64,000 nt of DNA, from assembly GCF_044324785.1 (NCBI RefSeq), contig NZ_CP172127.1, one strand, 5' to 3'. Below are positions 3,882-45,318 of this stretch, piece by piece (the first letter of the stretch is position 1; each line of letters starts with the position of its first letter). The notes below the pieces were generated by a model. That model was given only the letters and a program-made list of their open reading frames with translations. It had not been told where the DNA came from and searched no databases. The stretch comes from Escherichia coli. GTDB lineage: Bacteria; Pseudomonadota; Gammaproteobacteria; Enterobacterales; Enterobacteriaceae. The position numbers and the translations under genes are program-made.

Positions 3882-4250
3882 ATGGATAAGCAATCACTGC
3901 ACGAAACGGCGAAACGCCTGGCCCTTGAGTTACCCTTTGTCGAGCTTTGCTGGCCTTTTGGCCCGGAGTTCGATGTTTTTAAAATTGGCGGCAAGATTTT
4001 TATGCTGTCGTCAGAGCTGCGCGGCGTCCCCTTTATCAATCTGAAGTCCGATCCACAAAAATCCCTGTTAAATCAGCAAATATACCCGAGCATCAAGCCA
4101 GGGTATCACATGAATAAAAAGCACTGGATTTCAGTGTATCCCGGCGAGGAAATCTCCGAAGCGTTACTTAGCGATCTGATCAACGATTCGTGGAATCTGG
4201 TGGTTGATGGTCTGGCTAAACGCGATCAAAAAAGAGTGCGTCCAGGCTAA
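3882..4250 (+). CDS. ybdF: Conserved protein YbdF (DUF419)
   Basis: ORF 3762..4250; internal ATG at 3882 preceded by AAGGAA gives 122 aa ([12 protein letters not shown]...), matching K-12 YbdF length. Confidence 0.65.
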
Positions 4251-16308: not shown

Positions 16309-17051
16309 TTAGTTAGTTCAAACTCAAAGAGTGATGTATCGCCTTCTGTTATTATTTATCAATAAAACAGGGAAGACCTTATTGGTCGTCTGAAATCGAA
16401 GGTTATTCATTTTCGGATATTTACGAGATATTTAGATATGCAATTTAATCAAATTCGTGTTTCTACCAATTGTAGAGCACAATGCTATTACTAAATTTTC
16501 ATCACTATAAAAGAATCGGCTATAATATAAAGCGCAGTCAGGCATCATTAATCTCTATATTATTCACACAATCTATTTATCAAGTGAATTTGATAAATTC
16601 CTAATTTAAAATATTCACTATTAAGCCAGCGTCTAACGACGTTAAGATGGCAATGTGCAGATCATGTTATCAGGGTGGGGCGGTAGCGTATATTCCTTAT
16701 ACAAACCATCATTCATTTCAATAATATTTATTGAGTTATTTATTATTGTGAATAAAAAGACATTACAAATATTGGTTTAACTTTGCATATCAGGTGTTTT
16801 TTTGTTACTCGATGTAATATACGAGCCTGTCCTTAATAACATCGTGAACCCGTCAGTTGAGTTTGTGATTATTTTGTTGACTCAACAGCCCCCCGTTTCT
16901 CTGAAGTAAAATCCCGGACAAAATTCTCACATAACCATGACACTTTTCTGATATTCCCCGGTAACGCCTGAAGCCGGCCCGCTTATCTCATTACCCGACA
17001 TGTTGTACATGCAATATGTGCGGATTATTATTCATTTTCACGGAGGTTGCT

Positions 17052-18953: not shown

Positions 18954-18980
18954 TTCACTCAGATTAACAGGGAGTATTTT

Positions 18981-19442
18981 ATGCAGTTCACTTTTAATGA
19001 AGGTCATATTCAGCTGCCATCGCAATGGCAGGATCAGTCGATGCAGGTCCTGGTGTCCACAGATAACAGTGGCATCAACCTGGTCATTACCCGCGAACCC
19101 GTTCCACAGGGAACCCTGACACCAGAACTGTACCAGGAAACGCTGGCGCTGTACCAGGGCAAACTTGATGGGTACACCGAACATGCCTGCCGGGAAATCA
19201 CTCTGGCAGAGGCCCCGGCCTGGCTGCTGGATTATTCCTGGAACGGTCCGGAAGATGAAGGGAATCAGGGGCGGATTAGCCAGATAGCCGTATTCCAGCG
19301 GCGTGGAGATACGCTGCTGACCTTCACTTTCAGCACCTCCTTATCCCTGAAGAACAGTCAAAAGACGATGCTGCTGGAGGTGATAAAGAGCTTCACCCCG
19401 TTGCCACCGGAGAATGACATCCAAAAGGACCAGCCGCGCTGA
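18981..19442 (+). CDS. DUF1795-family (EagR-like) effector-associated chaperone
   Basis: 153-aa ORF between vgrG and a prePAAR-containing rhs gene, the canonical position of Eag chaperones; assignment is by size and context. Confidence 0.55.
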   Translation: MQFTFNEGHIQLPSQWQDQSMQVLVSTDNSGINLVITREPVPQGTLTPELYQETLALYQGKLDGYTEHACREITLAEAPAWLLDYSWNGPEDEGNQGRISQIAVFQRRGDTLLTFTFSTSLSLKNSQKTMLLEVIKSFTPLPPENDIQKDQPR

Positions 19443-19461
19443 CATAAACGAGGGATAACAC

Positions 19462-22400: not shown

Positions 22401-24324
22401 CCTGGCAGAAGTCATCACCCCGGAAGGCAAAACGCAGTATGCGTATGACAAATCCGGCAGGCTGACGGGTATCTTCAGCCCGGACGGCACATCACAGCGC
22501 ACCGGCTACGACGAACGCGGGCGGGTGAATGTCACCACTCAGGGCAGACGGGCCATTGAGTACCACCACCCCGATGAACACACCGTTATCCGCTGTATCC
22601 TGCCACCGGAAGATGAACGCGACAGACACCCCGGTGAATCCCTGCTGAAAACCACCTACCGCTACAACGCCGCCGGAGAACTGACGGAGGTTATCCTGCC
22701 GGGGGATGAGACGCTGACGTTCAGCCGTGATGAGGCAGGACGTGAAGTGCTCCGGCACAGTAACCGGGGTTTTGCCTGTGAACAGGGCTGGAATGCAGCC
22801 GGTCAGCTTACCAGCCAGCGCGCCGGATTTTTCCCGGCGGAAGCCACATGGGGCGGACTGCTCCCCTCACTGGTGCGGGAGTACCGTTACGACAGCGCGG
22901 GCAATGTGTCGGCTGTCACCAGCCGGGAAGACTACGGACGGGAAACACGGCGGGAGTACCGGCTGGACCGGAACGGCCAGGTCACAACGGTGACAGCCTC
23001 AGGCACCGGGCTGGGCTATGGCGAAGGCGACGAGACTTATGGCTATGACAGCTGCGGCTACCTGAAGGCGCAGTCTGCGGGCAGGCACCGGATAAGTGAA
23101 GAGACTGACCAGTATGCCGGAGGCCACCGGCTGAAACAGGCCGGAAACACGCAGTATGACTATGACGCCGCAGGCCGGATGGTCAGCCGCACCAGACACC
23201 GTGACGGCTACCGCCCGGAAACAGAGCGGTTCCGGTGGGACAGCCGGGACCAGCTGACCGGGTATTGCAGCGCACAGGGGGAGCAGTGGGAATACCGCCA
23301 CGACGCCAGCGGCAGGCGGACGGAAAAACGCTGCGACCGGAAGAAAATCCGTTTTACGTACCTGTGGGACGGCGACAATATTGCGGAAATCCGGGAATAC
23401 CGCGATGATAAACTGTACAGCGTACGGCACCTGGTGTTTAACGGCTTTGAGCTGGTAAGCCAGCAGTGCAGCCGGGTACGGCAGGCGCATCCGTCCGTGG
23501 CCCCGCAGTGGGTGACGCGAACGAATTATGCGGTGAGCGACCTGACAGGCCGCCCGCTGATGCTCTTTAACAGTGAAGGTAAAACCGTCTGGCGGCCGGG
23601 ACAGACCAGCCTGTGGGGGCTGGCACTCAGCCTGCCCGCAGACACCGGCTACCCGGACCCGCGCGGGGAACTGGACCCGGAAGCCCCCCCCGGCCTGCTG
23701 TATGCGGGACAGTGGCAGGATACGGAATCGGGGCTGTGCTATAACCGGTTCCGGTATTACGAGCCGGAAACCGGAATGTACCTGGTGAGTGATCCGCTGG
23801 GGTTGCAGGGAGGTGAGCAGACTTACCGGTATGTGCCTAATCCTTGTGGGTATGTTGATCCGCTGGGGCTGGCAAAAACCAGTATTATAAAATCTTCTAC
23901 AGGCAAAATCCCACAAGGGTTAACAAAAAGCGAATTTGAGATTTTTTCAAAAAAATTAAAGGATGTATTAGCCCGAGAGGGAATCTCGACAGAGAATGTG
24001 TTTGTACATGGCAGTAGAGCCAGAGGAGATGCTGTATCAGGTGTTTCAGATATTGATATAAAAGTGATCCTTAGTGATAAAGATTTTGGTGCCTTTGCAG
24101 CAAGACGTATTGCTGAGTCCTCAGGAAGGACTCGAAATTTAATCAGGAAGGCCGTTGCTAAAAATCAAAAAATAAATTCAAGAGGAATTTCTAAAACTTT
24201 TGAATCTACTGTATGGGATGAGGTTTTCACTACCTTACCAAAAGGTGAGTTTTCAAGCATTCAAGTTTCTGTTATGACCAAAACTTCACCATTCAACACT
24301 AATCCGAGTATTATATTACCATGA
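19462..24324 (+). CDS. rhs: Rhs-family polymorphic toxin: prePAAR motif + TM helices + PAAR domain + YD-repeat shell + DPxGL boundary + 150-aa C-terminal nucleotidyltransferase-like toxin domain
   Basis: 1620-aa ORF; N-terminal AARLGDEIQH (AARxxDxxxH prePAAR) then hydrophobic helices; PAAR region GSSNVFINNQPAARKGDKLECSAAIVEGSPDVFIGG; many YD repeats; core ends VSDPLGLQGGEQTYRYVPNPCGYVDPLGL; C-terminal domain is much more AT-rich and contains VHGSRARGDAVSGVSDIDIKV. Confidence 0.9.
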   Translation: MSEGPGGPQGATAGGTLAMRMLSQQAMVASQMKRAANDKAIAQMLASKKSGPPAARLGDEIQHKSFLGALAGAVLGAIVTIAEGCLIIAACATGPYALVLVPALMYASYKASDYVEEKQNQLESWINSFCDKDGAINTGSKNVNINGKPAARAAVTLPPPPLTEAIPSPPQGEPSWGDIATDLLESAAEKAVPLAKAWGNAVITLTDSNASFMDRLCAGTSLLFPYGPVLMEFATMVGGRGEIKKDVDFPEAGEDTALCDKETKPPRIAQGSSNVFINNQPAARKGDKLECSAAIVEGSPDVFIGGEQVTYLDIQPEFPPWQRMILGGITIASYLLPPAGLLGKMKNLARLGKLGNLLGKSGKLLGAKLGALLSRTKNALKNTYNVLKKFIKDPVDPVTGAYCDERTDFTLGQTLPLSFTRFHSSVLPLHGLTGVGWSDSWSEYAWVREQGNRVDIISQGATLYFAFDGDSDTAVNPYHAQYILRRRDDYLELFDRDALSSRFFYDAFPGMRLRHQVTGDTNDDRLAHSPGDRMYMLGGMSDTASNRITFERDSQYRITGVSHTDGIRLKLTYHASGYLKAIHRTDNGIQTLATYEQDERGRLTEADARLDYHLFYEYDDADRIIRWSDNDQTWSRFTYDAQGRCVTVTGAEGYYNATLDYGDGCTSVTDGKGIHRYYYDPDGNILREDAPDGSTTTYEWDEFHHLLARHSPAGRVEKFEYNAVHGQLSRYTAADGAVWQYRYDERGLLSNITDPAGQTWTQQCDERGLPVSLVSPQGEETRLAYTPQGLLSGIFRQDERRLGIEYDHHNRPETLTDVMGREHHTEYSGHDLPVKMRGPGGQSVRLQWQQHHKLSGLERAGTGAEGFRYDRHGNLLAYTDGNGVVWTMEYGPFDLPVARTDGEGHRWQYRYDKDTLQLTEVINPQGESYRYILDNCGRVTEERDWGGVVWRYRYDADGLCTARVNGLEETILYSRDAAGRLAEVITPEGKTQYAYDKSGRLTGIFSPDGTSQRTGYDERGRVNVTTQGRRAIEYHHPDEHTVIRCILPPEDERDRHPGESLLKTTYRYNAAGELTEVILPGDETLTFSRDEAGREVLRHSNRGFACEQGWNAAGQLTSQRAGFFPAEATWGGLLPSLVREYRYDSAGNVSAVTSREDYGRETRREYRLDRNGQVTTVTASGTGLGYGEGDETYGYDSCGYLKAQSAGRHRISEETDQYAGGHRLKQAGNTQYDYDAAGRMVSRTRHRDGYRPETERFRWDSRDQLTGYCSAQGEQWEYRHDASGRRTEKRCDRKKIRFTYLWDGDNIAEIREYRDDKLYSVRHLVFNGFELVSQQCSRVRQAHPSVAPQWVTRTNYAVSDLTGRPLMLFNSEGKTVWRPGQTSLWGLALSLPADTGYPDPRGELDPEAPPGLLYAGQWQDTESGLCYNRFRYYEPETGMYLVSDPLGLQGGEQTYRYVPNPCGYVDPLGLAKTSIIKSSTGKIPQGLTKSEFEIFSKKLKDVLAREGISTENVFVHGSRARGDAVSGVSDIDIKVILSDKDFGAFAARRIAESSGRTRNLIRKAVAKNQKINSRGISKTFESTVWDEVFTTLPKGEFSSIQVSVMTKTSPFNTNPSIILP

Positions 24325-24671
24325 AGAAAAAAGATATTAGATTTGCAATATCCATTAACTCCAACTTAAGTAAGATAGAATTAATGGAAAAAATTAAAAA
24401 TATAATCCCAGGGCTTATTGAAATAACTTCCAGTGCATTAAGAGAAGAAAAAAACATGGTAGTTATTGAAGAAAATGATCTTTATGACCCTATAAAAGCA
24501 GAGGGAGCTGATGGATGGATGTATTATAAATTCATATTATCCATATTCCCATTAAAGGGAGTGGAAACAACATTAGAATATCAACGGGAATTATCTTTTC
24601 TTTTCTTAAAGAAAATAAAAGATGCGGGCCTGTTGGGTGAACTTATATGCGAGGATGATTTTCATGACTGA
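24321..24671 (+). CDS. Putative cognate immunity protein (RhsI) for the Rhs C-terminal toxin
   Basis: 116-aa AT-rich ORF whose ATG overlaps the rhs stop (ATGA); position and composition typical of Rhs immunity genes; no recognisable domain. Confidence 0.6.
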   Translation: MKKKDIRFAISINSNLSKIELMEKIKNIIPGLIEITSSALREEKNMVVIEENDLYDPIKAEGADGWMYYKFILSIFPLKGVETTLEYQRELSFLFLKKIKDAGLLGELICEDDFHD

Positions 24672-24729
24672 TGACCTCTACATATATCCTCAGTTCGTGG
24701 CTGGTATTACATGATCTGACAGGGAAAGA

Positions 24730-24883
24730 TCGTGGCGAAATCAAAAAAGACGTGGATTTCCCGGAAGCCGGTGAGGACACGGCGCTCTGCGACAAGGAGA
24801 ACAAACCACCGAGGATAGCCCAGGGCAGCAGCAACGTCTTCATCAACAATCAGCCTGCCGCACGCAAAGGGGACAAACTGCAG
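24730..24883 (+). pseudogene. Displaced 154-bp fragment of the rhs PAAR-encoding region
   Basis: Near-identical to main rhs 20177-20329 (GEIKKDVDFPEAGEDTALCDKE.KPPRIAQGSSNVFINNQPAARKGDKL); preceded by CAGGGAAAGATC at 24718-24729 and truncated by the IS left end at 24881. Confidence 0.8.
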
Positions 24884-26171
24884 GGAAAGATCACGTAACG
24901 CTGCTTTTTTGTACTAAATAATTCGCATTTTATGTTTAAAAATTGAGATATTCCTCATTACCTAAAGCTGTTTTTTATTGCTTATACATGATCAAATACT
25001 CCTTACATAATTAAGGAGAACAAAATGGAACTTAAAAAATTGATGGAACATATTTCTGTTATCCCCGATTACAGACAAGCATGGAAAGTAGAACATAAAT
25101 TGTCAGATATTCTACTGTTGACTATTTGCGCCGTCATTTGTGGTGCAGAAGGCTGGGAAGATATAGAGGATTTTGGTGAAACACATCTCGATTTTTTGAA
25201 GCAATATGGTGATTTTGAAAATGGTATTCCTGTCCACGATACCATTGCCAGAGTTGTATCCTGTATCAGTCCTGCAAAATTTCACGAGTGCTTTATTAAC
25301 TGGATGCGAGATTGCCATACTTCAGATGATAAAGACGTTATTGCAATCGATGGAAAAACACTCCGGCATTCTTATGACAAGAGTCGCCGCAGGGGAGCGA
25401 TTCATGTCATTAGTGCGTTCTCAACAATGCACAGTCTGGTCATCGGACAGATCAGGACGGATGAGAAATCTAATGAGATTACAGCTATCCCAGAACTTCT
25501 TAACATGCTGGATATTAAAGGAAAAATCATCACAACTGATGCGATGGGTTGCCAGAAAGATATTGCAGAGAAGATACAAAAACAGGGCGGTGATTATTTA
25601 TTCGCTGTAAAAGGAAATCAGGGGCGGCTTAATAAAGCCTTTGAGGAAAAATTCCCACTGAAAGAATTAAATAATCCAGAGCATGATAGTTACGCAATTA
25701 GTGAAAAGAGTCACGGCAGAGAAGAAATCCGACTTCATATTGTTTGCGATGTCCCTGATGAACTTATTGATTTCACGTTTGAATGGAAAGGGCTGAAGAA
25801 ATTATGCATAGCAGTCTCCTTTCGCTCAATAATAGCAGAGCAAAAGAAAGAGCCAGAAATGACGGTCAGATATTATATCAGTTCTGCTGATTTAAACACA
25901 GAAAAGTTCGCCACAGCAATCCGAAACCACTGGCACGTGGAGAATAAGCTGCACTGGCGTCTGGATGTGGTAATGAATGAAGACGACTGCAAAATAAGAA
26001 GAGGAAATGCAGCAGAATTATTTTCAGGGATACGGCACATCGCTATTAATATTTTGACGAATGATAAGGTATTCAAGGCAGGGTTAAGACGTAAGATACG
26101 AAAAGCAGCTATGGACAGAAACTACATGGCGTCAGTCCTTGCGGGGAGCGGGCTTTCGTAATCTTTCCCTG
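24881..26171 (+). mobile_element. ISAs1-family insertion sequence (Rhs H-repeat element), copy 1, ~1.29 kb
   Basis: Terminal inverted repeats CAGGGAAAGAT... (left) and ...ATCTTTCCCTG (right); contains a 378-aa transposase ORF; second copy at 31026-32315. Confidence 0.8.
25025..26161 (+). CDS. ISAs1-family transposase (H-repeat-associated protein, YhhI/YdcC/YbfD-like)
   Basis: 378-aa [40 protein letters not shown]...; recognised as the H-rpt protein family of Rhs elements. Confidence 0.85.
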
Positions 26172-26174
26172 GAC

Positions 26175-26396
26175 ATGACGATTATTGTTCGTTCAAATCC
26201 GAGTAAAGCCGCTATTCTTGAAGAATTTTTACATGGTACACAAGAGAAACTAGGAATAGCTGAAAAATTAGGACGTTATGGACTAGGGAGTGCAGAAACG
26301 CACGTTAAGGATTTCATGATAAGACACAAAAAAATGCTTGGGTTATCTGATGAGGATGTAGCAATACTCAAAATATTGAAAGACAAGGGGTTGTGA
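26175..26396 (+). CDS. Hypothetical small protein (73 aa from MTIIV...); possibly the remnant C-terminus of a toxin domain truncated by the IS
   Basis: ORF 26139..26396 continues in frame across the IS right end; first ATG after the IS at 26175; AT-rich; stop overlaps next ORF start (ATGA). Confidence 0.3.
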   Translation: MTIIVRSNPSKAAILEEFLHGTQEKLGIAEKLGRYGLGSAETHVKDFMIRHKKMLGLSDEDVAILKILKDKGL

Positions 26397-26683
26397 TGAA
26401 TATAATTCTGCCGATAAAAGATATATTTATTATTGCGGGAAACATAGTTTTTAGCGTTTTATACAATGAACATATTGAGTTCCCATGCCGCTGCCAATTA
26501 CTATCTTCAAATTCTGAAGTTATGCAAGAGTTATATATTGAAAAAGAGTTATTTATTAAACGCACTACAGAAAATGATTGTCGTGCTTTAGTGTTAAGAG
26601 GAACATTGGAATACTTATTTGATGAAATTATTGCTGGCGATTGTGCATTGGCCTTATTACAAAAAGAAATAAAAAAAGATTAA
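26393..26683 (+). CDS. Hypothetical AT-rich protein, candidate orphan immunity protein
   Basis: 96-aa ORF translationally coupled to the upstream ORF by ATGA overlap; very AT-rich; no recognisable domain. Confidence 0.35.
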   Translation: MMNIILPIKDIFIIAGNIVFSVLYNEHIEFPCRCQLLSSNSEVMQELYIEKELFIKRTTENDCRALVLRGTLEYLFDEIIAGDCALALLQKEIKKD

Positions 26684-26895
26684 TCCAATATGTAGAACTG
26701 GACAATACCCATCTTTTAACAATGAACTTCGTAATTTTTATCTTAGAAATAATGCTACATTATATGAGGTATATCATGAAGTAATTCATGCCAAGCAATT
26801 TGCGAAAATATTTCTATCGGAGGTGCTGATGCACCATCTAATATGAGACTTATGGATATAATGACACATACAACTCATCATAAATATTACAGGCC

Positions 26896-27264
26896 TTGGG
26901 AATGATAAATAAAATAGTGAAAAAAATGTTGGTTTCATATAGCCCTAAGAAACCGGAGTCTAGGGGCGGGGATTTTGTTATTCCGTTGTTTTTTAATGAG
27001 AAAGTTTCTTTTTTTAGCATAAAAAGTGGCAAGCCAGTGCGATATGGTCTTATGGTATTTACAGGGAAAGTAATTACCATAGATGATATTCTTAGTAAAG
27101 TTCGTTTTCCTGATGTTATGAATGAGCAAAATATTCAACCGTTAATTGACTTTATTAATAACATTAGCGATTTTAAAATAGGGGATGTTATTGAAATTGA
27201 TGATAATGGTAAATTGAAAGTTGTGCCAAAATCAGCAGGACACCCTGTGAGTAAATTGCCATGA
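26896..27264 (+). CDS. Hypothetical AT-rich protein, candidate orphan immunity protein
   Basis: 122-aa ORF immediately upstream of the orphan rhs fragment; AT-rich; no recognisable domain. Confidence 0.35.
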   Translation: MGMINKIVKKMLVSYSPKKPESRGGDFVIPLFFNEKVSFFSIKSGKPVRYGLMVFTGKVITIDDILSKVRFPDVMNEQNIQPLIDFINNISDFKIGDVIEIDDNGKLKVVPKSAGHPVSKLP

Positions 27265-27289
27265 TACTTAAGGGGCCTGATTTTCTGTT

Positions 27290-30051
27290 TTTGCCAGTGG
27301 GACGAATACCATCACCTGCTGGCGAGGCTGTCTCCGGCAGGACGGCTGGAAAAGTTTGACTATCATCTGACACTCGGTCAGTTAAGCCGTTACACGGCGG
27401 CAGACGGCGCGGAGTGGCAGTACCGCTATGATGAGCGCGGCCTGCTCAGCAACATCACCGACCCTGCCGGGCAGACGTGGACACAGCAGTGCGATGAACG
27501 CGGCCTGCCGGTGAGTCTGGTGTCGCCACAGGGCGAAGAGACCCGGCTGGCGTACACCGCTCAGGGGCTGCTGTCGGGGATATTCCGCCAGGATGAACGG
27601 CGTCTGGGCATAGAGTACGACCACCACAACCGGCCGGAAACACTCACCGACGTGATGGGCCGTGAACACCACACCGAATACAGCGGTCACGACCTGCCGG
27701 TGAAGATGCGCGGCCCCGGCGGTCAGTCAGTGCGCTTACAGTGGCAGCAGCACCATAAACTGAGCGGCATTGAACGTGCTGGAACCGGCGCGGAAGGATT
27801 TCGCTATGACCGCCACGGCAACCTGCTGGCCTGGACGGACGGCAACGGTGTTGACTGGACAATGGAATACGGCCCGTTTGATTTGCCGGTGGCGCGAACG
27901 GACGGTGAAGGCCACCGCTGGCAGTACCGCTACGATAAAGACACGCTGCAACTGACAGAAGTCATCAATCCGCAGGGCGAGTCATACCGTTATATTCTCG
28001 ACAACTGTGGGCGGGTGACGGAAGAGCATGACTGGGGCGGCGTGGTCTGGCGTTACCGCTATGACGCCGATGGTCTGTGTACCGCCAGGGTTAACGGCCT
28101 GGAGGAAACCATCCTCTACAGCCGGGACGCCGCAGGCCGCCTGGCAGAAGTCATCACCCCGGAAGGGAAAACGCAGTATGCGTATGACAAATCCGGCAGG
28201 CTGACGGGTATCTTCAGCCCGGACGGCACATCACAGCGCACCGGCTACGACGAACGCGGGCGGGTGAATGTCACCACTCAGGGCCGACGGGCCATTGAAT
28301 ACCACCACCCCGATGAACACACCGTCATCCGCTGTATCCTGCCACCGGAAGATGAACGCGACAGACACCCCGGTGAATCCCTGCTGAAAACCACCTACCG
28401 CTACAACGCCGCCGGAGAACTGACGGAGGTTATCCTGCCGGGGGATGAGACGCTGACGTTCAGCCGTGATGAGGCAGGACGTGAAGTGCTCCGGCACAGT
28501 AACCGGGGTTTTGCCTGTGAACAGGGCTGGAATGCAGCCGGTCAGCTTACCAGCCAGCGCGCCGGATTTTTCCCGGCGGAAGCCACATGGGGCGGACTGC
28601 TCCCCTCACTGGTGCGGGAGTACCGTTACGACAGCGCGGGCAATGTGTCGGCTGTCACCAGCCGGGAAGACTACGGACGGGAAACACGGCGGGAGTACCG
28701 GCTGGACCGGAACGGCCAGGTCACAACGGTGACAGCCTCAGGCACCGGGCTGGGCTATGGCGAAGGCGACGAGACTTATGGCTATGACAGCTGCGGCTAC
28801 CTGAAGGCGCAGTCTGCGGGCAGGCACCGGATAAGTGAAGAGACTGACCAGTATGCCGGAGGCCACCGGCTGAAACAGGCCGGAAACACGCAGTATGACT
28901 ATGACGCCGCAGGCCGGATGGTCAGCCGCACCAGACACCGTGACGGCTACCGCCCGGAAACAGAGCGGTTCCGGTGGGACAGCCGGGACCAGCTGACCGG
29001 GTATTGCAGCGCACAGGGGGAGCAGTGGGAATACCGCCACGACGCCAGCGGCAGGCGGACGGAAAAACGCTGCGACCGGAAGAAAATCCGTTTTACGTAC
29101 CTGTGGGACGGCGACAATATTGCGGAAATCCGGGAATACCGCGATGATAAACTGTACAGCGTACGGCACCTGGTGTTTAACGGCTTTGAGCTGGTAAGCC
29201 AGCAGTGCAGCCGGGTACGGCAGGCGCATCCGTCCGTGGCCCCGCAGTGGGTGACGCGAACGAATTATGCGGTGAGCGACCTGACAGGCCGCCCGCTGAT
29301 GCTCTTTAACAGTGAAGGTAAAACCGTCTGGCGGCCGGGACAGACCAGCCTGTGGGGGCTGGCACTCAGCCTGCCCGCAGACACCGACTACCCGGACCCG
29401 CGCGGGGAGCTGGACCCGGAAGCCGACCCCGGCCTGCTGTATGCAGGACAGTGGCAGGATACGGAATCAGGGCTGTGCTATAACCGGTTCCGGTACTACG
29501 AGCCGGAAACCGGAATGTACCTGGTGAGTGATCCGCTGGGGTTGCAGGGGGGTGAGCAGACTTACCGGTATGTGCCGAATCCTTTAAGATATAAAGATTT
29601 CTATGGGCTTAGTAAGAGTTCAATAATAACGAGAGGAAAGAATGCTGGTCATGGCTATGCAGCCAGCGTTACACCTGGAGGCAAAGGTACGGTGTTGGCT
29701 GGTCACGGAGGATCAAAATTTGGCGATAAAATGATTATACCAGAAGGCGTATCGATAACGATGCCGAGAGATGGTATTAAAATATCAGATATGACTGGAA
29801 AATTACTGGAATCTGGTAATGTGGATGATATAATTAAAGCTGCAAGTAATAATCCTCGTGTAGCTAGCGATCTTGAAGGTTGGGTTACTTATTTGCCCGG
29901 CACTGAAATCCCTGATTATATTTTAAAACCACCCACCAATCTTAACATACTGGAAAATTCAGTAACGGTGAACACTTCAACTTATTTATCTCAAATGGTA
30001 AATGCTGGTCAAGGTAATGTAATCTGGGCTGCATGCACCGAATTTTTTTAA
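27290..30051 (+). pseudogene. rhs: Orphan rhs module: 3' part of the rhs core (no in-frame start; reading frame opens at 27255) fused to an alternative ~155-aa C-terminal toxin domain
   Basis: Homology to main rhs begins ~27290 (main 21565) and is near-identical from 27385; frame has a stop at 27252-27254 and no ATG until 27511; core ends ...DPLGLQGGEQTYRYVPNP then diverges (LRYKDFYGLSKSSIITRGKNAGHGYAAS...). Confidence 0.8.
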
Positions 30052-30065
30052 CGCGGGGTAATCGT

Positions 30066-30548
30066 ATGTATTTTAAAGATGATACTGACTATACATATTT
30101 CCTTCCTAATGAATATTTTTTACACGGGGTGAAAAATGTGGGCTGGATAGACAGAGAACACCCCTTCACAAAAGGGATTAGTGACGCTGAATTTATTGAA
30201 AAGTTAAAAGCAATAATTCTAACAGAGAATGAAGCAACTTGTTTTTCAGTTAATAAAATAAGAGGATTTCACAAATGTAATTTTTGCAATAGTGAAATGA
30301 TAACAATAACCGATGGAAGAAAAAAAGGATACCTTGGCATGAGTGAAATATGGATTCCATCCATCCACCATAATGAGTATTACGCGTTTCCTTCATTAAT
30401 TTTCCATTATATAACATCTCACATGTATAGACCACCAGAGGACTTTATTGTATCTGTTTTAAACTTGAATTTAAGCGAGAGTTTTTGCGCTCAAAACATA
30501 TATGACAATAAAATTAAGGAATTAAAAATAGACTTCTGGTTTCGTTAA
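30066..30548 (+). CDS. Putative immunity protein for the orphan Rhs C-terminal domain
   Basis: ATG at 30066, 15 bp after the orphan rhs stop; 160 aa, AT-rich, contains CNFCN and His-rich segment; no recognisable domain. Confidence 0.5.
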   Translation: MYFKDDTDYTYFLPNEYFLHGVKNVGWIDREHPFTKGISDAEFIEKLKAIILTENEATCFSVNKIRGFHKCNFCNSEMITITDGRKKGYLGMSEIWIPSIHHNEYYAFPSLIFHYITSHMYRPPEDFIVSVLNLNLSESFCAQNIYDNKIKELKIDFWFR

Positions 30549-30567
30549 AGCTGGTAATTTAACTTAT

Positions 30568-30660
30568 CGGGAATACCGCTATGATGGCAGTTTCAGACGG
30601 ACGGAGAAATGCTGTCAGCAAAAAGACTTCCGCTTCGCGTATCTGTGGGGCATGGGGATA
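30568..30660 (+). pseudogene. Short fragment of a divergent rhs core 3' region
   Basis: Translates to EYRYDGSFRRTEKCCQQKDFRFAYLWG, resembling but not identical to the resident core EYRHDASGRRTEKRCDRKKIRFTYLWDG. Confidence 0.5.
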
Positions 30661-30726
30661 ATTTATCTTCATCAATTGATATATTGATTAATGGCAAGGA
30701 GGCCATTGAAATTCCGTAAGGCCAAC

Positions 30727-30912
30727 TTGATATGACGCCTGGCACACAGCCCCGGTGACCGGATGTATATGCTGGGCGGGATGAGCGACACCGCCAGCAA
30801 CCGCATCACGTTTGAGCGCGACAGCCAGTACCGGATCACGGGTGTCAGTCACACCGACGGGATCCGGCTTAAACTGACGTACCACGCCAGCGGCTACCTG
30901 AAAGCCATTCAC
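30727..30912 (+). pseudogene. Rhs core fragment (copy of main rhs ~21040-21225) truncated by an IS left end
   Basis: Encodes RLAHSPGDRMYMLGGMSDTASNRITFERDSQYRITGVSHTDGIRLKLTYHASGYLKAIHR, near-identical to the main rhs; followed by CAGGGAAAGATCACG at 30915. Confidence 0.8.
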
Positions 30913-30914
30913 CG

Positions 30915-31025
30915 CAGGGAAAGATCACGTAACGCTGCTTTTTTGTACTAAGCAATTCGCATTTTATGTTCAGTATTTGAGATACTCCTTATAACACAAA
31001 CCTGTTTTTCATAGCTTATATATGT
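30915..31025 (+). repeat. Partial duplicate of the ISAs1 left end (~110 bp) upstream of the complete copy 2
   Basis: CAGGGAAAGATCACGTAACGCTGCTTTTTTGTACTAA... matches the IS left end, then a second left end begins at 31026. Confidence 0.7.
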
Positions 31026-32315
31026 AGGAAAAGATCACGTAACGCTCCTTTTTTGTACTAAATAATTCGCATTTTATGTTTAAAAATTGAGATATTCCTC
31101 ATTACCTAAAGCTGTTTTTTATTGCTTACACATGATCAAATACTCCTTACATAATTAAGGATAACAAAATGTAACTTAAAAAATTGATGGAACATATTTC
31201 TATTATCCCCGATTACAGACAAGCCTGGAAAGTGGAACATAAATTATCGGATATTCTACTGTTGACTATTTGTGCCGTTATTTCGGGTGCAGAAGGTTGG
31301 GAAGATATAGAGGATTTTGGGGAAACACATCTCGATTTTTTAAAACAATATGGTGATTTTGAAAATGGTATTCCTGTTCACGATACCATTGCCAGAGTTG
31401 TATCCTGTATCAGCCCTGCAAAATTTCACGAGTGCTTTATTAACTGGATGCGAGATTGCCATACTTCAGATGATAAAGACGTCATCGCAATTGATGGAAA
31501 AACACTCCGGCATTCTTATGGCAAGAGTCGCCGCAGGGGAGCGATTCATGTCATTAGTGCGTTCTCAACAATGCACAGTCTGGTCATCGGACAGATCAGG
31601 ACGGATGAGAAATCCAATGAAATTACAGCTATCCCTGAACTTCTTAACATGCTGGATATTAAAGGAAAAATCATCACAACTGATGCAATGGGTTGCCAGA
31701 AAGATATTGCAGAGAAGATACAAAAACAGGGCGGTGATTATTTATTCGCTGTAAAAGGAAATCAGGGGCGGCTTAATAAAGCCTTTGAGGAAAAATTTCC
31801 ACTGAAAGAATTAAATAATCCAGAGCATGACAGTTACGCCATTAGTGAAAAGAGTCACGACAGAGAAGAAATCCGTCTTCATATTGTTTGCGATGTCCCT
31901 GATGAACTTATTGATTTCACGTTTGAATGGAAAGGACTGAAGAAATTATGCGTGGCAGTCTCCTTTCGGTCAATAATAGCAGAACAAAAGAAAGAGCCAG
32001 AAATGACGGTCAGATATTATATCAGTTCTGCTGATTTAACCGCAGAGAAGTTCGCCACAGCAATCCGAAACCACTGGCACGTGGAGAATAAGCTGCACTG
32101 GCGTCTGGACGTGGTAATGAATGAAGACGACTGCAAAATAAGAAGAGGAAATGCAGCAGAATTATTTTCAGGGATACGGCACATCGCTATTAATATTTTG
32201 ACGAATGATAAGGTATTCAAGGCAGGGTTAAGACGTAAGATGCGAAAAGCAGCCATGGACAGAAACTATCTCGCGTCAGTCCTTGCTGGGAGCGGGCTTT
32301 CGTAATCTTTCCCTG
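31026..32315 (+). mobile_element. ISAs1-family insertion sequence (H-repeat element), copy 2, direct orientation relative to copy 1
   Basis: Same terminal sequences as copy 1 (left GGAAAAGATCACG, right ATCTTTCCCTG); transposase ORF inside. Confidence 0.8.
31187..32305 (+). CDS. ISAs1-family transposase (H-repeat protein), copy 2
   Basis: 372 aa from ATG 31187; the upstream ATG of copy 1 is followed here by TAA (ATGTAA), so this copy starts at the internal Met; a few substitutions relative to copy 1. Confidence 0.8.
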
Positions 32316-32502
32316 CGTTAACCGCCCCTCCTTGACACCACGCTTTTGTCTACATTCTACGCAAACGGCAACTTTTATAACCAGTGTAAAAATAACGTGC
32401 CGCAATAGTCATACCTATTAATGGTAAAAAGCTGTCACAATTCATAAAAAACCTTAATATACGCCACCCTAAACATAACCAGCGTTAATGTAAGGTTTTT
32501 GT

Positions 32503-39534: not shown

Positions 39535-39579
39535 AGGGCAAAGCGGAAACGGATAAGACGGGCATAAATGAAGAAGAAA

Positions 39580-39624
39580 TGGCGCGCCCTGCAGGATTCG
39601 AACCTGCGGCCCACGACTTAGAAG
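39580..39624 (-). tRNA. argU: 3'-terminal 45 nt of tRNA-Arg(UCU) argU (anticodon loop through CCA): prophage attachment-site remnant (attR-like), not a complete tRNA
   Basis: Reverse complement reads CTTCTAAGTCGTGGGCCGCAGGTTCGAATCCTGCAGGGCGCGCCA, matching the 3' part of argU as I recall it; upstream sequence does not continue the tRNA. Confidence 0.7.
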
Positions 39625-40046
39625 TTCCTAGAACGACATTTTAAGTCAACAACTTACCGCGCCATCTCTGCGCTCACACGTCCCACTACCTCAAAACATG
39701 TAAAGCCTTGCAAGCCATTGTGAGGCCTTATGTGTCTCAGTTTTGTCCCTCTTTTTTGTACCAAAAAACATAGCAATTGAGGATAAACCTCATGCTATTT
39801 TCGCTTATATGCCTCTAAAGGCATGGCGCTTAAATAGATAAAAACACCACAAAAGCATAAAAAACCACACAGTAAAACCGCAACATAAAACAATAACAGA
39901 TAATTAAACCAAAAACAGATAGCGCATTGTGATAATCATTCAATACTAAACAAAATATAAACAGTGGAGCAATATGTAATTGACTCATTAAGTTAGATAT
40001 AAAAAATACATATTCAATCATTAAAACGATTGAATGGAGAACTTTT

Positions 40047-41000
40047 ATGCGGGCGAAACTTCTGGGAATAGTCCTGACAACCCCTATTGCGATCAGCTCT
40101 TTTGCTTCTACCGAGACTATATCGTTTACTCCTGACAACATAAATGCGGACATTAGTCTTGGAACTCTGAGCGGAAAAACAAAAGAGCGCGTTTATCTAG
40201 CTGAAGAAGGAGGCCGAAAAGTCAGTCAACTCGACTGGAAATTCAATAACGCTGCAATTATTAAAGGTGCAATTAATTGGGATTTGATGCCCCAGATATC
40301 TATTGGGGCTGCGGGCTGGACTACTCTCGGCAGCCGGGGTGGCAATATGGTCGATCAGGACTGGATGGATTCCAGTAACCCCGGAACCTGGACAGATGAA
40401 AGTAGGCACCCTGATACACAACTCAATTATGCTAACGAATTTGATCTGAATATCAAAGGCTGGCTCCTCAACGAACCCAATTACCGCCTGGGACTCATGG
40501 CCGGATATCAGGAAAGCCGTTATAGCTTTACAGCCAGAGGTGGTTCCTATATCTACAGTTCTGAGGAGGGATTCAGAGATGATATCGGCTCCTTCCCGAA
40601 TGGAGAAAGAGCAATCGGCTACAAACAACGTTTTAAAATGCCCTACATTGGCTTGACTGGAAGTTATCGTTATGAAGATTTTGAACTCGGTGGCACATTT
40701 AAATACAGCGGCTGGGTGGAATCATCTGATAACGATGAACACTATGACCCGGGAAAAAGAATCACTTATCGCAGTAAGGTCAAAGACCAAAATTACTATT
40801 CTGTTGCAGTCAATGCAGGTTATTACGTAACACCTAACGCAAAAGTTTATGTTGAAGGCGCATGGAATCGGGTTACGAATAAAAAAGGTAATACTTCACT
40901 TTATGATCACAATGATAACACTTCAGACTACAGCAAAAATGGTGCAGGCATAGAAAACTATAACTTCATCACTACTGCTGGTCTTAAGTACACCTTTTAA
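40047..41000 (+). CDS. ompT: Outer-membrane protease OmpT (omptin family)
   Basis: 317-aa ORF MRAKLLGIVLTTPIAISSFA...; recognised as OmpT. Confidence 0.9.
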   Translation: MRAKLLGIVLTTPIAISSFASTETISFTPDNINADISLGTLSGKTKERVYLAEEGGRKVSQLDWKFNNAAIIKGAINWDLMPQISIGAAGWTTLGSRGGNMVDQDWMDSSNPGTWTDESRHPDTQLNYANEFDLNIKGWLLNEPNYRLGLMAGYQESRYSFTARGGSYIYSSEEGFRDDIGSFPNGERAIGYKQRFKMPYIGLTGSYRYEDFELGGTFKYSGWVESSDNDEHYDPGKRITYRSKVKDQNYYSVAVNAGYYVTPNAKVYVEGAWNRVTNKKGNTSLYDHNDNTSDYSKNGAGIENYNFITTAGLKYTF

Positions 41001-41230
41001 CAACGTTAAATAGATTTTCTCCCCGGTGGTATTGTATCGCCCCGGGGAATTTGTTTACCGTTAAGAGCAACAATATCCCCTAAACTTGTAAGCATTTAAC
41101 CTGCCTCCTAACGTGTAAGCTCTTACCACAACACTAGACTCAATATATTCAAATTCGCTATGCCGTGACATCATTTAACACCTTGTAATTCATCGCCATA
41201 ATTGATTTAATTCACAAATAAAACTATAAC

Positions 41231-41899
41231 ATGGTGAAATTGATGAAAAAAAACACAGATGATGGGGCTAAAATTTACACACCACTTACCCTAAAGCTTT
41301 ATGACTGGTGGGTTTTGGGAGTATCAAATCGGCTTGCATGGGGATGTCCTACAAAGGAACACCTTCTTCCACACTTTCTGGAACATTTAGGTAACAACCA
41401 TCTGGATATTGGTGTTGGAACTGGGTTTTACCTTACTCACGTACCTGAGAGTAGTCTGATATCTTTAATGGATTTGAACGAAGCTAGCCTGAACGCGGCA
41501 TCTACAAGGGCTGGGGAATCAAAAATTAAACATAAAATTAGCCATGATGTTTTTGAACCTTATCCCGCGGCGTTACATGGCCAATTTGATTCCATTTCCA
41601 TGTTTTACCTTCTTCACTGCCTGCCTGGAAATATATCTACAAAAAGCTGTGTAATACGCAATGCGGCGCAGGCCTTAACTGACGATGGAACTCTATACGG
41701 AGCCACAATTCTTGGCGATGGAGTTGTGCACAATAGCTTCGGTCAAAAACTGATGCGCATTTACAATCAGAAAGGCATCTTTTCAAACACAAAAGATTCC
41801 GAAGAAGGCTTAACACATATACTCTCAGAGCATTTCGAGAATGTTAAAACCAAGGTTCAAGGTACTGTAGTAATGTTTTCCGCTTCAGGGAAAAAATAG
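41231..41899 (+). CDS. Class I SAM-dependent methyltransferase (intact counterpart of the K-12 DLP12 ybcY pseudogene, by position)
   Basis: 222-aa ORF with glycine-rich SAM-binding motif DIGVGTGFY; ybcY assignment is from context only. Confidence 0.55.
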   Translation: MVKLMKKNTDDGAKIYTPLTLKLYDWWVLGVSNRLAWGCPTKEHLLPHFLEHLGNNHLDIGVGTGFYLTHVPESSLISLMDLNEASLNAASTRAGESKIKHKISHDVFEPYPAALHGQFDSISMFYLLHCLPGNISTKSCVIRNAAQALTDDGTLYGATILGDGVVHNSFGQKLMRIYNQKGIFSNTKDSEEGLTHILSEHFENVKTKVQGTVVMFSASGKK

Positions 41900-42403
41900 C
41901 ATCCAACCGCAGCACGTTCTTGCATACGCCGTGTCTGCGGTTTAATTTTCACTCTCAAATATTGTAGTTAAGTACAATCATGATTCTTTGGACTATATAA
42001 ATTTTCTTGTAATTAGTTCTTTAGCCGAAATTTTAAAACAATTATTTATTCAAGGGATGGACTCTATTAGGAACTATCTCAAAAACATGAATAACCACCA
42101 TCTTACGATTGAATTATTTTACAGAGTATTCTTATTGAGAAAAACAACAGCAGGTACACCAAATAATATAGAAATGTAAATTTAGGTTCATTAATCTTTT
42201 GAGTTACAACCTAAACTTTCCGTTAATCACTAAGATATCAATAGATTATACTCACTGAGCGCACGTTTTTTACAATTATTATTTCTCACATCAAAATGCG
42301 CATACCAATCTGTTATTTGACACTTTCTTATTTGTTACTAGAGTTAATTGGGTGCTGACAAGGCACATGTTATTTACAATTTGAAAATCAGAGGAGAAAT
42401 GAT

Positions 42404-42586
42404 ATGACCGAACATCGTGGCGGTGCAGGTAATTTCGCTGAAGATCGACAAAAAGCTTCTGACGCTGGTCGTAAAGGCGGCCAACATAGTGGCGGTAATT
42501 TTAAAAACGATCCACAAAGAGCATCAGAAGCAGGGAAAAAAGGTGGTCAGAATAGCCATGGTGGCGGCCGTAAATCTGACTCTTAA
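42404..42586 (+). CDS. KGG-repeat general stress protein (YciG/YmdF family)
   Basis: 60-aa ORF with repeated RKGGQ.SGGNF / KKGGQNSHGG motifs. Confidence 0.6.
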   Translation: MTEHRGGAGNFAEDRQKASDAGRKGGQHSGGNFKNDPQRASEAGKKGGQNSHGGGRKSDS

Positions 42587-42616
42587 TTTATTACCCCCTA
42601 CATTCGTGAATAACTG

Positions 42617-42638
42617 AAGCTAACTGCGAGCCTACGGG
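42617..42638 (+). promoter_or_regulatory. Intercistronic hairpin (CTGCGAGCC-TAC-GGGCTCGCAG) between the yciG-like and yciF-like genes
   Basis: Perfect 9-bp inverted repeat seen in sequence; no U-tract, so more likely an mRNA-stabilising or processing structure than a terminator. Confidence 0.4.
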
Positions 42639-42658
42639 CTCGCAGTGAAAACTCTGGA

Positions 42659-43165
42659 GTGATTATGCAAATTAAATCTGTTGAAGATATCTTCATCCAC
42701 TTATTATCGGATACATACAGCGCTGAGAAACAACTAACAAAGGCACTGTCTAAACTTAGTCGCTCTGCATATAGTGATAAATTAACCGCTGCTTTTCAGT
42801 CACATCTTGATGAGACACATGGTCAAATTGAACGCATCGATCAGGTTGTTGATTCTGAAGATGGTCTTAAATTGAAAAGAATTAAGTGTGCCGCAATGGA
42901 AGGACTTATCGAAGAGGCGAATGAGGTAATTGAAAGCACTGATAAAAATGAAGTACGTGATGCAGCATTGATTGCTGCAGCACAAAAAGTAGAGCACTAT
43001 GAAATTGCCAGTTATGGCACTTTGGTAACACTCGCTGAGCAATTAGGATATAAAAAAGCGGCTAAACTCCTGAAAGAAACACTGGAAGAGGAAAAAGCTA
43101 CTGATGTCAAATTAACAGATCTGGCATTTAATAACGTTAATAAAAAAGCTCAGGATAACTCCTGA
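42659..43165 (+). CDS. Ferritin-like DUF892 protein (YciF-like)
   Basis: 168-aa ORF containing SVEDIFIHLLSDTYSAEKQLTKAL, resembling YciF. Confidence 0.65.
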   Translation: MIMQIKSVEDIFIHLLSDTYSAEKQLTKALSKLSRSAYSDKLTAAFQSHLDETHGQIERIDQVVDSEDGLKLKRIKCAAMEGLIEEANEVIESTDKNEVRDAALIAAAQKVEHYEIASYGTLVTLAEQLGYKKAAKLLKETLEEEKATDVKLTDLAFNNVNKKAQDNS

Positions 43166-43201
43166 ACTATAGACTTCAATTTCTTTTAGGATAAACAGAT
43201 T

Positions 43202-43708
43202 ATGAATAGAATTGAACATTACCATGACTGGCTTCGTGATGCACATGCGATGGAGAAACAAGCTGAAAAAATGCTTGAGTCTATGGCCAGCCGGATAGAA
43301 AACTATCCAGAGTTACGTTCCAGAATTGAGCAGCACATTAGCGAAACAAAGAACCAGCTTTCACAGCTTGAAAGCATACTTGATCGTAATAATATTTCGC
43401 GCTCTGTCATTAAAGACTCTATGAGTCAAATGGCCGCGTTTGGGCAATCCATTGGTGGAATTTTTCCATCTGATGAAATTGTCAAAGGTTCGATCAGTGG
43501 CTATGTGTTCGAACAATTTGAAATTGCGTGTTACACATCTCTTCTCGCAGCAGCCAAAAATGCGGGTGATACAGCCTCAGTACCCATTATTGAAGCAATT
43601 CTTAATGAAGAAAAACAAATGGCTGAATGGCTTCTTAACCATATTCCTGACACCACTGAACAATTCATGGTCAGATCTGAAATTGATGGAGTTGAAGCCA
43701 AAAAATAA
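43202..43708 (+). CDS. Ferritin-like DUF892 protein (YciE-like)
   Basis: 168-aa ORF paralogous to the upstream gene (WLRDAHAMEKQAEKMLE...); same operon. Confidence 0.65.
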   Translation: MNRIEHYHDWLRDAHAMEKQAEKMLESMASRIENYPELRSRIEQHISETKNQLSQLESILDRNNISRSVIKDSMSQMAAFGQSIGGIFPSDEIVKGSISGYVFEQFEIACYTSLLAAAKNAGDTASVPIIEAILNEEKQMAEWLLNHIPDTTEQFMVRSEIDGVEAKK

Positions 43709-43726
43709 TTCTTTTGAGGAGGCATT

Positions 43727-44617
43727 ATGTTTAGACACGTGAAAAAACTTCAATATACAGTACGTGTAAGTGAGCCAAACCCAGGCTTGGCTAATCTACT
43801 TTTAGAACAATTCGGCGGGCCACAGGGTGAGCTTGCAGCAGCATGCCGATACTTCACTCAAGGCTTAAGTGATGAAGATGCAGGCCGAAGGGATATGCTG
43901 ATGGACATAGCAACAGAAGAACTAAGTCATCTCGAAATTATTGGTTCTCTTGTTGGTATGCTCAACAAAGGTGCAAAAGGAGCACTTGCTGAAGGAACTG
44001 AGAATGAAGCTGAGCTTTACCGTTCCTTAACTCAAAATGGCAATGACAGCCATATAACTTCTCTCCTCTACGGAGGAGGCCCAGCATTAACTAATTCAGC
44101 TGGAGTACCCTGGACTGCAGCTTATGTTGATACTATTGGCGAAGTCACGGCCGATCTTCGTTCAAATATTGCAGCTGAAGCTCGGGCAAAGATCATTTAC
44201 GAACGTCTCATTAATGTTACTGATGATCCTGGAGTAAAAGACACTCTGGCATTTTTAATGACCAGGGAAGCAGCACACATGCTTTCATTTGAAAAAGCAT
44301 TACATTCAATTCGTAACACCTTTCCACCAGGGAAATTACCACCAATTGAGAAATACAAAAACGTATATTACAACATGTCAGAAGGTGAAGACGTCAGAGG
44401 TAGTTGGAACAGTGATGAAAACTTTGACTATGTTTCCGATCCAGTTCCAGCGGTTGACGGTGGGGATGGGAAGGCCTCGATAAATCTTTCGACCAAGCAA
44501 GAAGCTATGATAAAAGCTATGGCAACAAGGTTGAAATCCCATGAAGACATCAATCCTGTCACTGGCGCTGAGCTTGCTGAAGGAGAACCACAAACAAAGA
44601 TAAATAGTAAAAACTAA
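43727..44617 (+). CDS. Non-haem manganese catalase (KatN-like)
   Basis: 296-aa ORF with Mn-catalase-like segments (EELSHLEIIG, ARAKIIYERLI, REAAHMLSFEKAL); operon structure mirrors Salmonella yciGFE-katN. Confidence 0.65.
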   Translation: MFRHVKKLQYTVRVSEPNPGLANLLLEQFGGPQGELAAACRYFTQGLSDEDAGRRDMLMDIATEELSHLEIIGSLVGMLNKGAKGALAEGTENEAELYRSLTQNGNDSHITSLLYGGGPALTNSAGVPWTAAYVDTIGEVTADLRSNIAAEARAKIIYERLINVTDDPGVKDTLAFLMTREAAHMLSFEKALHSIRNTFPPGKLPPIEKYKNVYYNMSEGEDVRGSWNSDENFDYVSDPVPAVDGGDGKASINLSTKQEAMIKAMATRLKSHEDINPVTGAELAEGEPQTKINSKN

Positions 44618-44707
44618 TTATCTTCTGGTATTTAGCTATCCCTCATAAGTTAATTGCCGCTGAGATATCCTAAGCTCTAGCCTCTGAAAATACATTTATA
44701 TTTCGAA

Positions 44708-44736
44708 GCCCGCGATATTTTAAGCGGGCTTTTATT
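44708..44736. terminator. Rho-independent terminator (GCCCGC-loop-GCGGGC + TTTTATTTT) between the convergent catalase operon and tfa
   Basis: Hairpin plus U-tract on the + strand after the catalase stop; sits 1 nt from the tfa stop on the other strand. Confidence 0.6.
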
Positions 44737-45318
44737 TTAAACTTCTGGTATTACAGGCCACTCAATATCAGGTGCAGTTGATGTATCAACACGGTTCAGC
44801 AACACCCGATACTTCTTCCAGGCTTCCAGCAACGAGTTTTCTTCCTCCGTTGCGATCTCCAGATCTACAGCATCCTGAAGTGGCGCAATATGCTCACTGG
44901 CTACCTGCATCAGGCTGTTTTTTGTTTCTTCCACCTCCCGGATCCGGAACAGTTTTTCTGCTTCTGCATCTTTCACCCAGGCTGTGCCGTTCCACTTCTG
45001 AAACTCCCCTTCCGGCGATAACCAGGTAACATTTTCCGGTAACGGACCGAGTTCAGAAATAAATAACGCGTCCCCTGACGCTACGTCATAAACCGTTTTA
45101 CCCCGATGATCTTCAACGAGATGCCACGATGCCTCATCACTGTTGAAAACAGCCACGAAGCCTGCCGGAATATCTGGCGGTGCAATATCGGTACTGTTTG
45201 CTGGCAGACCTGTATGAGGCGGAATATATGCATCACCTTCACCAATAAATTCATTAGTTCCGGCCAGCAGATTATAAATTTTTATGGTCCGTGGTTGTTC
45301 ACTCATTCTGAATGCCAT
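44737..45318 (-). CDS. tfa: Tail fibre assembly protein Tfa (lambda-type)
   Basis: 193-aa [37 protein letters not shown]..., recognised as lambda Tfa; downstream of stf. Confidence 0.85.

Follow-up and report, generated by a model that had tools for sequence, protein, structure and literature searches.

This report concerns a copy of the enterobacterial general-stress locus yciG-yciF-yciE-katN, found in a 64,000-nucleotide stretch of Escherichia coli DNA (contig NZ_CP172127.1) that is called the window below. Its closest described relative is the katN locus of enterohaemorrhagic E. coli (EHEC) O157:H7, which comprises Z1921 (KatN), Z1922, Z1923 and Z1924 on the cryptic prophage CP-933X (O-island 52) in strain EDL933 and is represented by ECs_1652 in strain Sakai. 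Dong and Schellhorn found Z1922, Z1923 and Z1924, annotated as part of CP-933X, to be RpoS-dependent by 35-, 64- and 137-fold, respectively, in EDL933 (PMC2907692). Wan et al. gave the name KatN to Z1921, which is 84% identical to Salmonella KatN, and described katN and z1922-z1924 as an operon homologous to yciGFEkatN whose location on CP-933X implies horizontal acquisition. In their work RpoS was essential for transcription of katN, OxyR promoted it, and an hns mutant showed an increase of more than 450-fold; KatN helped the bacteria to grow under H2O2 and to survive in macrophages (PMC5363993). These findings are restated in later literature (PMC12981562). The module in the window is therefore already known, as the published EHEC katN locus, and its detection here is a rediscovery. 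The best explanation of the whole locus, to which we give a probability of about 0.88, is that a prophage at argU carries two independent cargo units, a methyltransferase gene and a self-contained yciG-yciF-yciE-katN stress insert.

The O157:H7 module and that of the window have 96.9% nucleotide identity over 2808 bp. The YciG, YciF, YciE and KatN proteins of O157:H7 strain SS52 are 100, 100, 99 and 99% identical to those of the window (tblastn), and for YciG, YciF, YciE and the methyltransferase SS52 shares RefSeq protein accessions with SCU-104, one of the strains closest to the window. The neighbours are also alike, since the module is flanked by the methyltransferase at one end and by tfa-stf-lom-J at the opposite end, and the core promoter is the same. 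The window differs from SS52 in having a clean att core at the argU/DLP12 site and in lacking the alpha/beta-hydrolase gene and the ISEc8 element located between ompT and the methyltransferase. The distal upstream DNA of the window is a different allele, about 84% identical to that of O157:H7.

The Salmonella yciGFE-katN operon, the work of Robbe-Saule et al. (2001) and Beraud et al. (2010), is reportedly RpoS-dependent and H-NS-repressed, and we take it to be a chromosomal rather than a prophage locus. Its four genes and their order match the module, and its promoter and the hairpin between its yciG and yciF are homologous to those of the module; its proteins are only 88, 80, 82 and 84% identical to YciG, YciF, YciE and KatN of the window. 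The likeness to Salmonella in gene content and order, pointed out in the initial annotation, extends to the chromosomes of many other Enterobacteriaceae. When one genome per species was scanned, the order yciG-yciF-yciE-katN was found in about 30 enterobacterial species representatives, and katN lies directly downstream of yciGFE in Salmonella, Enterobacter, Klebsiella, Leclercia, Lelliottia, Phytobacter and others, with KatN identities of 81-87%. None of these genomes, one for each species, is close enough to be named as the donor: the best KatN matches were 86-87% (Phytobacter and Kosakonia), with Salmonella at 84%. An Escherichia-related source of the module is possible, since its YciE is nearest to that of K-12 (88%).

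The chromosomal yciGFE locus of K-12 (b1259-b1257, between trpA and ompW), part of the core genome, is paralogous to the module, with a nucleotide identity of 73.9% over 1343 bp. The K-12 YciG, YciF and YciE proteins are 93, 80 and 88% identical to those of the module, and the promoter architecture and the hairpin are the same; K-12 has no katN. A megablast search of 5426 complete E. coli genomes, the set used for all genome counts below, found the K-12-type yciGFE in 4729 and the prophage copy in 381, so the prophage copy is normally a second one, which adds katN. By these comparisons, the insert is best described as a second, diverged copy of the yciGFE(katN) locus of enterobacteria. In about 13% of the genomes the K-12-type locus is missing or diverged, and several of the top matches have IS1 or IS5 inside it.

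The insert and its place in the prophage

Gene coordinates were taken from a six-frame list of open reading frames (ORFs) of the window, and domain assignments from a Pfam profile scan. The features of the locus are as follows.

39580-39624, minus strand: att core, a 45-nt copy of the 3' end of the tRNA-Arg(UCU) gene argU, an exact match to the last 45 nt of K-12 argU
40047-41000, plus strand: ompT, omptin protease, phage b-region cargo (Omptin, 5.5e-130)
41175-41202, plus strand: sigma-70-like promoter site ahead of the methyltransferase (promoter-like site search)
41231-41899, plus strand: class I S-adenosylmethionine-dependent methyltransferase (Methyltransf_12, 3.8e-09, plus Methyltransf_23/25/11)
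41905-41942, plus strand: terminator-like hairpin after the methyltransferase, arms AACCGCAG and CTGCGGTT, followed by TTTAATTTT (-18.1 kcal/mol, z = -4.1)
41947-44754, plus strand: yciGFE-katN module, 2808 bp, an insertion relative to K-12 DLP12 and phage 2G7b
42317-42344, plus strand: yciG-type sigma-S-like promoter, TTGACA at 42317-42322, 16-nt spacer, TAGAGT at 42339-42344
42404-42586, plus strand: yciG-like KGG-repeat general stress protein, 60 amino acids (PF10685 KGG, 1.1e-16, 2 repeats)
42623-42646, plus strand: RNA hairpin between yciG and yciF, perfect 10-bp stem, UACG loop
42665-43165, plus strand: yciF-like DUF892 ferritin-like protein, 166 amino acids (PF05974, 3.2e-54)
43202-43708, plus strand: yciE-like DUF892 ferritin-like protein, 168 amino acids (PF05974, 2.2e-50)
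43727-44617, plus strand: katN, manganese (non-haem) catalase, 296 amino acids (PF05067 Mn_catalase, 5.4e-87)
44705-44739, plus strand: intrinsic terminator of the operon, 9-bp G+C-rich stem (44705-44713/44724-44732), 10-nt loop, U-run
44737-45318, minus strand: tfa, tail fibre assembly protein (Caudo_TAP, 1.2e-43)

This region can be compared with the right end of the K-12 prophage DLP12 (tfaD-ybcY-tfaX-appY-ompT-attR) and with the isolated lambdoid phage 2G7b (LR595866). Both share with the window the att core, ompT, the methyltransferase and the tfa backbone (97-98% identity) and have an empty site in place of the 2.8-kb module. The slot occupied by 41947-44754 measures 29 bp in K-12 DLP12, 35 bp in 2G7b and 2808 bp in the window (BLAST). 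The flanks are 97-98% identical from 41144/41148 to 41940/41946, and again from 44755 into tfa. The left joint is therefore just past the methyltransferase hairpin, where homology with both relatives stops at 41940-41946. The right joint is 18 nt within tfa, at the homology break 44754/44755, and for this reason the last six codons of tfa (44737-44754) and the operon terminator belong to the inserted DNA. As a result the Tfa C-terminus is EWPVIPEV here and EWPTNPVRE in K-12 TfaD. Neither repeats nor a target-site duplication, an insertion sequence (IS) end or an integrase were found at the joints of the module, which look like ordinary mosaic recombination joints. The insertion point and the boundaries of the module can thus be defined from the window to within a few bases; this addition to what is known is modest and opens no new question. 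The GC content of the module is 0.39, compared with 0.53-0.56 in the tail genes. The module has its own promoter and terminator, both inside the insert, and is read convergently with the tail genes.

The boundary of the prophage is marked by the 45-nt att core, which lies just past envY, to the left of ompT. The K-12 RefSeq feature for the cryptic prophage DLP12 starts at position 33 of argU, with 45 nt of the gene remaining, and stops at the equivalent fragment that lies between ompT and envY. The same 45-mer follows int directly in 2G7b, where it is attP, and the order there is int-attP-ompT-alpha/beta hydrolase-tfa fragments-methyltransferase-tail-fibre genes. Positions 39578-41154 of the window are 98% identical to positions 2455-4033 of 2G7b, next to its integrase. 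Its identity to the DLP12 end and to the 2G7b attP makes 39580-39624 the att boundary of the prophage on its b-region side; Rfam gave a partial, sub-threshold tRNA match at 39591-39674. The DNA from ompT rightwards to at least position 64000 is prophage, and the stretch is the cargo end, or b region, of a lambda-like prophage at the tRNA gene argU, the DLP12 site. The tail genes start at 44737, and 44.7-64 kb is occupied by long intact tail and head ORFs on the minus strand. The module is located between the att core and these structural genes. The initial annotation placed the operon within prophage boundaries, and a position outside the att site would have contradicted it; as the att core lies left of ompT, the operon falls within the prophage.

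The region is E. coli DNA, 99.9% identical to strains SCU-104, A17 and OkiPb01694. The annotated order in SCU-104 is cusRS-nfrBA-ybcH-envY-ompT-methyltransferase-general stress protein-two ferritin-like proteins-Mn catalase-tfa-tail fibre-lom-gpJ. In the window, ORFs are present at the coordinates given earlier for the five plus-strand genes between ompT and tfa. All five proteins already have PHROGs families and are annotated as a matter of routine in RefSeq. The four genes from yciG to katN are on one strand with gaps of 78, 36 and 18 nt. The start of yciF is taken as the ATG at 42665, following the SCU-104 annotation; the alternative GTG at 42659 was used for the Pfam scan.

The KGG, DUF892 and Mn-catalase assignments of the initial annotation are borne out, with every Pfam match far over its threshold. 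The yciG-like protein scores 61.1 bits against a cut-off of 20.4 for KGG. The yciF-like and yciE-like proteins score 183.7 and 171.2 bits for DUF892 (cut-off 23.7) and match the PDB entries 2GS4 (E. coli YciF, 1.3e-82) and 3OGH (YciE, 1.2e-96), respectively. For KatN the Mn_catalase score is 291.8 bits against a cut-off of 27, over residues 1-270, which is the whole catalytic domain. Its matches to Mn catalases in the PDB range from 4e-47 to 1e-15, including 6J42 and 4R42 (about 1e-47) and 1JKU (4.7e-35); we take 1JKU to be the L. plantarum enzyme and 4R42 to be Anabaena KatB. The di-metal ligand pattern is present in KatN as E35, E65-x2-H68, E151 and E181-x2-H184, aligned with conserved positions of 6J42 and 4R42; calling these residues metal ligands relies on the published structures. 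The corresponding ligands in the numbering of the L. plantarum enzyme are presumably E35, E66, H69, E148 and H181. With the NCBIfam equivalog model ManCatBAC, KatN scores 167, below the cut-off of 350. KatN is thus placed by these profiles within the Mn catalase family, outside the narrower ManCatBAC subgroup.

The methyltransferase is an intact homologue of the K-12 pseudogene ybcY (phrog_2132, 7.9e-157, a family with no assigned function), and its protein is 100% identical in phage 2G7b. In about a dozen isolated lambdoid phages (2G7b, ev243, PhiR26_1 and others) it is found beside tfa, free of the module, while in strain Ec-U11 a prophage at ydfJ carries the module and lacks the methyltransferase. 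Since each occurs without the other, the methyltransferase is evidently an older, independent phage cargo outside the operon. The last stretch common to the window and the empty-site phages is the hairpin at 41905-41942. The five genes are adjacent and on the same strand, and one could suppose that they form a single operon that includes the methyltransferase. This is very improbable. Within the 504-bp gap between the methyltransferase and yciG lie this stable hairpin and the T's after it, species without such a methyltransferase also have the conserved yciG promoter, and the two units are separated both in K-12 and many phages and, in the opposite sense, in Ec-U11.

The slot between ompT and the methyltransferase (41051-41147) is a second variable cargo position. 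It is 97 bp long in the window and is occupied by appY and tfaX in K-12, by an alpha/beta hydrolase and tfa fragments in 2G7b, and by the hydrolase and ISEc8 in O157:H7.

Promoter, hairpin and terminator

The promoter at 42317-42344 is the best promoter-like site in the region, with 10 of 12 matches. A C is present at -13, directly ahead of the -10 element, and TAA just after it; this is the arrangement favoured by sigma-S. The transcription start of yciG is predicted near 42351. When the 200 nt upstream of yciG were aligned for nine loci, among them the E. coli module and those of K-12, Salmonella, Enterobacter, Klebsiella, Leclercia, Lelliottia and Phytobacter, a single block proved to be conserved: an invariant TTTGAC, 16-17 nt, CTAnnnTTAA. 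From about 42290 to 42403 the window and O157:H7 hardly differ. The 457-bp upstream region has a GC content of 29%, which fits the H-NS silencing reported for EHEC.

Some minor features of this upstream region were also noted. The segment 41980-42290 is only about 80-85% identical to the O157:H7 allele, while identity across the terminator, the coding regions and the core promoter is 97-100%. This divergence may reflect a recombination patch or relaxed constraint, in a region that is likely to be bound by H-NS. An ORF of 63 amino acids at 41988-42179, in the most variable part, had no Pfam match and was treated as non-coding. A small hairpin, GTGCTGACAAGGCAC, at 42352-42366 coincides with the predicted transcription start and 5' untranslated region of yciG. 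All the E. coli module alleles have it unchanged; its conservation in other species is not obvious.

The inverted repeat between yciG and yciF, described at first as a 9-bp repeat at 42617-42638, is real; its position and length have to be corrected to 42623-42646 and 10 bp. The hairpin has a folding energy of -21.2 kcal/mol with z = -4.6, and no shuffled sequence folds equally well. In an alignment of 13 sequences, a hairpin of the same sequence family occupies the same position in all orthologous loci examined, and 5 of the 11 pairs (three core and two loop-proximal pairs) are changed on both sides with pairing kept. It is therefore to be regarded as an ancestral, conserved feature of the yciGFE locus and not as special to this copy. 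The hairpins of Salmonella, Klebsiella and Phytobacter precede a T-run and resemble an attenuating terminator; no such run is present in the window or in the K-12 copy. An Rfam scan found no known RNA family over the hairpin or the 5' untranslated region. A role in differential expression within the operon is plausible: the hairpin probably stabilises or partially terminates the transcript, which would make yciG more abundant than the distal genes.

After the terminator stem downstream of katN comes TTTTATTTTA, overlapping the stop codon of tfa at 44737-44739. On the plus strand the U-run is UUUUAUUUUA, with a folding energy of -16.0 kcal/mol and z = -4.2, while on the minus strand the hairpin is followed by UCGAAAUAUAAA, which has no U-run. 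Of the proposal that this is a bidirectional terminator shared with tfa, the plus-strand half can be retained and the tfa half is unconvincing. The terminator is 98.5-100% conserved in all copies of the module; homology with the empty-site phages resumes only at 44755. Terminator-like sites within the coding regions (7 found, 3.2 +/- 1.9 expected) were taken as chance.

Carriage and proposed function

The module is present in 381 of the 5426 complete genomes, with full-length copies in 380, and in every match listed tfa is found under its right-hand end. In 344 of the 381, a single match covers at least 80% of a query that includes the methyltransferase and tfa flanks. Several chromosomal sites are used: argU in the window, ydfJ in Ec-U11 and a rearranged, IS-laden locus of the CP-933X type in O157:H7 SS52. 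Most carriers are O157:H7, at 96.9% nucleotide identity, as judged from an even sample down the ranking. The genomes closest to the window came from a healthy student, an otter, bovine faeces and baboons, and these isolates are not labelled EHEC. The presence of the module at the argU/DLP12 site in such isolates indicates that it is not restricted to pathogens, and it qualifies the published remark that non-pathogens lack katN.

Several points weigh against the reading of the locus as phage cargo under the known stress regulation. No complete isolated phage genome with the module came up when about 50,700 phage records were searched at the DNA and protein levels, and its transfer inside infective virions is thus conjectural, the carriers being predicted prophage contigs. 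The other end of the prophage, with int and attL, falls outside the window. The upstream segment 41980-42290 is divergent, so that fine regulation could differ from that of the O157 allele, and the hairpin between yciG and yciF has no U-run in this copy, so that its effect on expression is conjecture.

The first of these points suggests another possibility, that the module is a fixed chromosomal islet in a decayed prophage and is spread by ordinary recombination between related prophages and not in virions. The empty phage records, among which 2G7b, ev243 and the PhiR phages have the methyltransferase directly beside tfa, would be expected in that case; in addition, the O157:H7 copy is in an IS-riddled prophage that is called cryptic in the literature (PMC5363993), and the tail genes adjoining the module in Ec-U11 are pseudogenes. 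However, the tail and head genes of the window are intact over 44.7-64 kb, the module is found in several different places on the chromosome and is attached to tfa in every case, and nine IMG/VR predicted viral contigs carry it. The matches in the phage collections are to the methyltransferase and tfa flanks, together with short unannotated fragments containing a Salmonella-like katN (84%). On this evidence a fixed islet is somewhat unlikely, and carriage as cargo of the argU prophage is preferred.

A role of the operon in oxidative stress under RpoS, as anticipated in the initial annotation, has been shown experimentally for the 99-100% identical O157:H7 genes (PMC2907692, PMC5363993). The RpoS, H-NS and OxyR regulation and the peroxide and macrophage phenotypes may be extended by analogy to the module of the window through this identity, and the regulation in particular because the core promoter is identical to the EHEC allele. 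In a lysogen, H-NS would silence the module during growth, while in stationary phase or under stress RNA polymerase with RpoS would transcribe it with the help of OxyR; both steps are taken from the published O157:H7 work. E. coli lysogens would thereby gain, under RpoS control, a second set of YciG, YciF and YciE together with a haem-independent dimanganese catalase that removes H2O2. In EHEC the benefit of the module is seen in peroxide resistance and macrophage survival.

KatN might instead act mainly as a secreted type VI effector that detoxifies reactive oxygen species of the host cell, and not as a cytoplasmic stress enzyme. Secretion of KatN dependent on the T6SS (type VI secretion system) and its translocation into macrophages have been reported in EHEC (PMC5363993; restated in PMC12981562), and the window carries a vgrG-PAAR-Rhs island at 17-32 kb. 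Against this, Pfam finds no recognisable T6SS effector domain or adaptor in KatN, katN is co-transcribed with cytoplasmic stress proteins, and its orthologues occur in the same operon across many species irrespective of the T6SS. In addition, the EHEC katN mutant is not attenuated in mice (PMC5363993). A mainly secreted role is unlikely in our view. It is more speculative still, and quite doubtful, that the prophage keeps the catalase operon for itself, with less H2O2 damping SOS induction and stabilising lysogeny, and that the hairpin is a regulatory RNA processing or attenuation site that sets the ratio of YciG to YciFE-KatN.

Other features of the window

A type VI vgrG-rhs effector island is located about 10 kb from the prophage whose catalase is reported as T6SS-secreted in EHEC. 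The island, of about 16 kb (16309-32502, between cusS and nfrB), is found neither in K-12 nor in SCU-104, which is otherwise near-identical to the window. Its features are as follows.

17016-18953: VgrG
18981-19442: DcrB-like protein
19462-24324: PAAR-Rhs protein of 1620 amino acids with a nucleotidyltransferase-like C-terminal tip
25025-26161 and 31184-32305: two ISAs1/H-repeat transposases
27511-30051: orphan Rhs fragment with a Stv-domain tip
30033-30548: DUF7919 protein, possibly an immunity protein

An Rfam match to RF02111 ("IS009") was found at 44777-44975 on the minus strand, scoring 227.9 bits where the gathering score is 117. The match falls wholly inside the sequence that codes for Tfa, on its coding strand. 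Rather than an independent small RNA, this family seems to represent the 3' part of tfa in lambdoid phages (in K-12, a pseudogene region).

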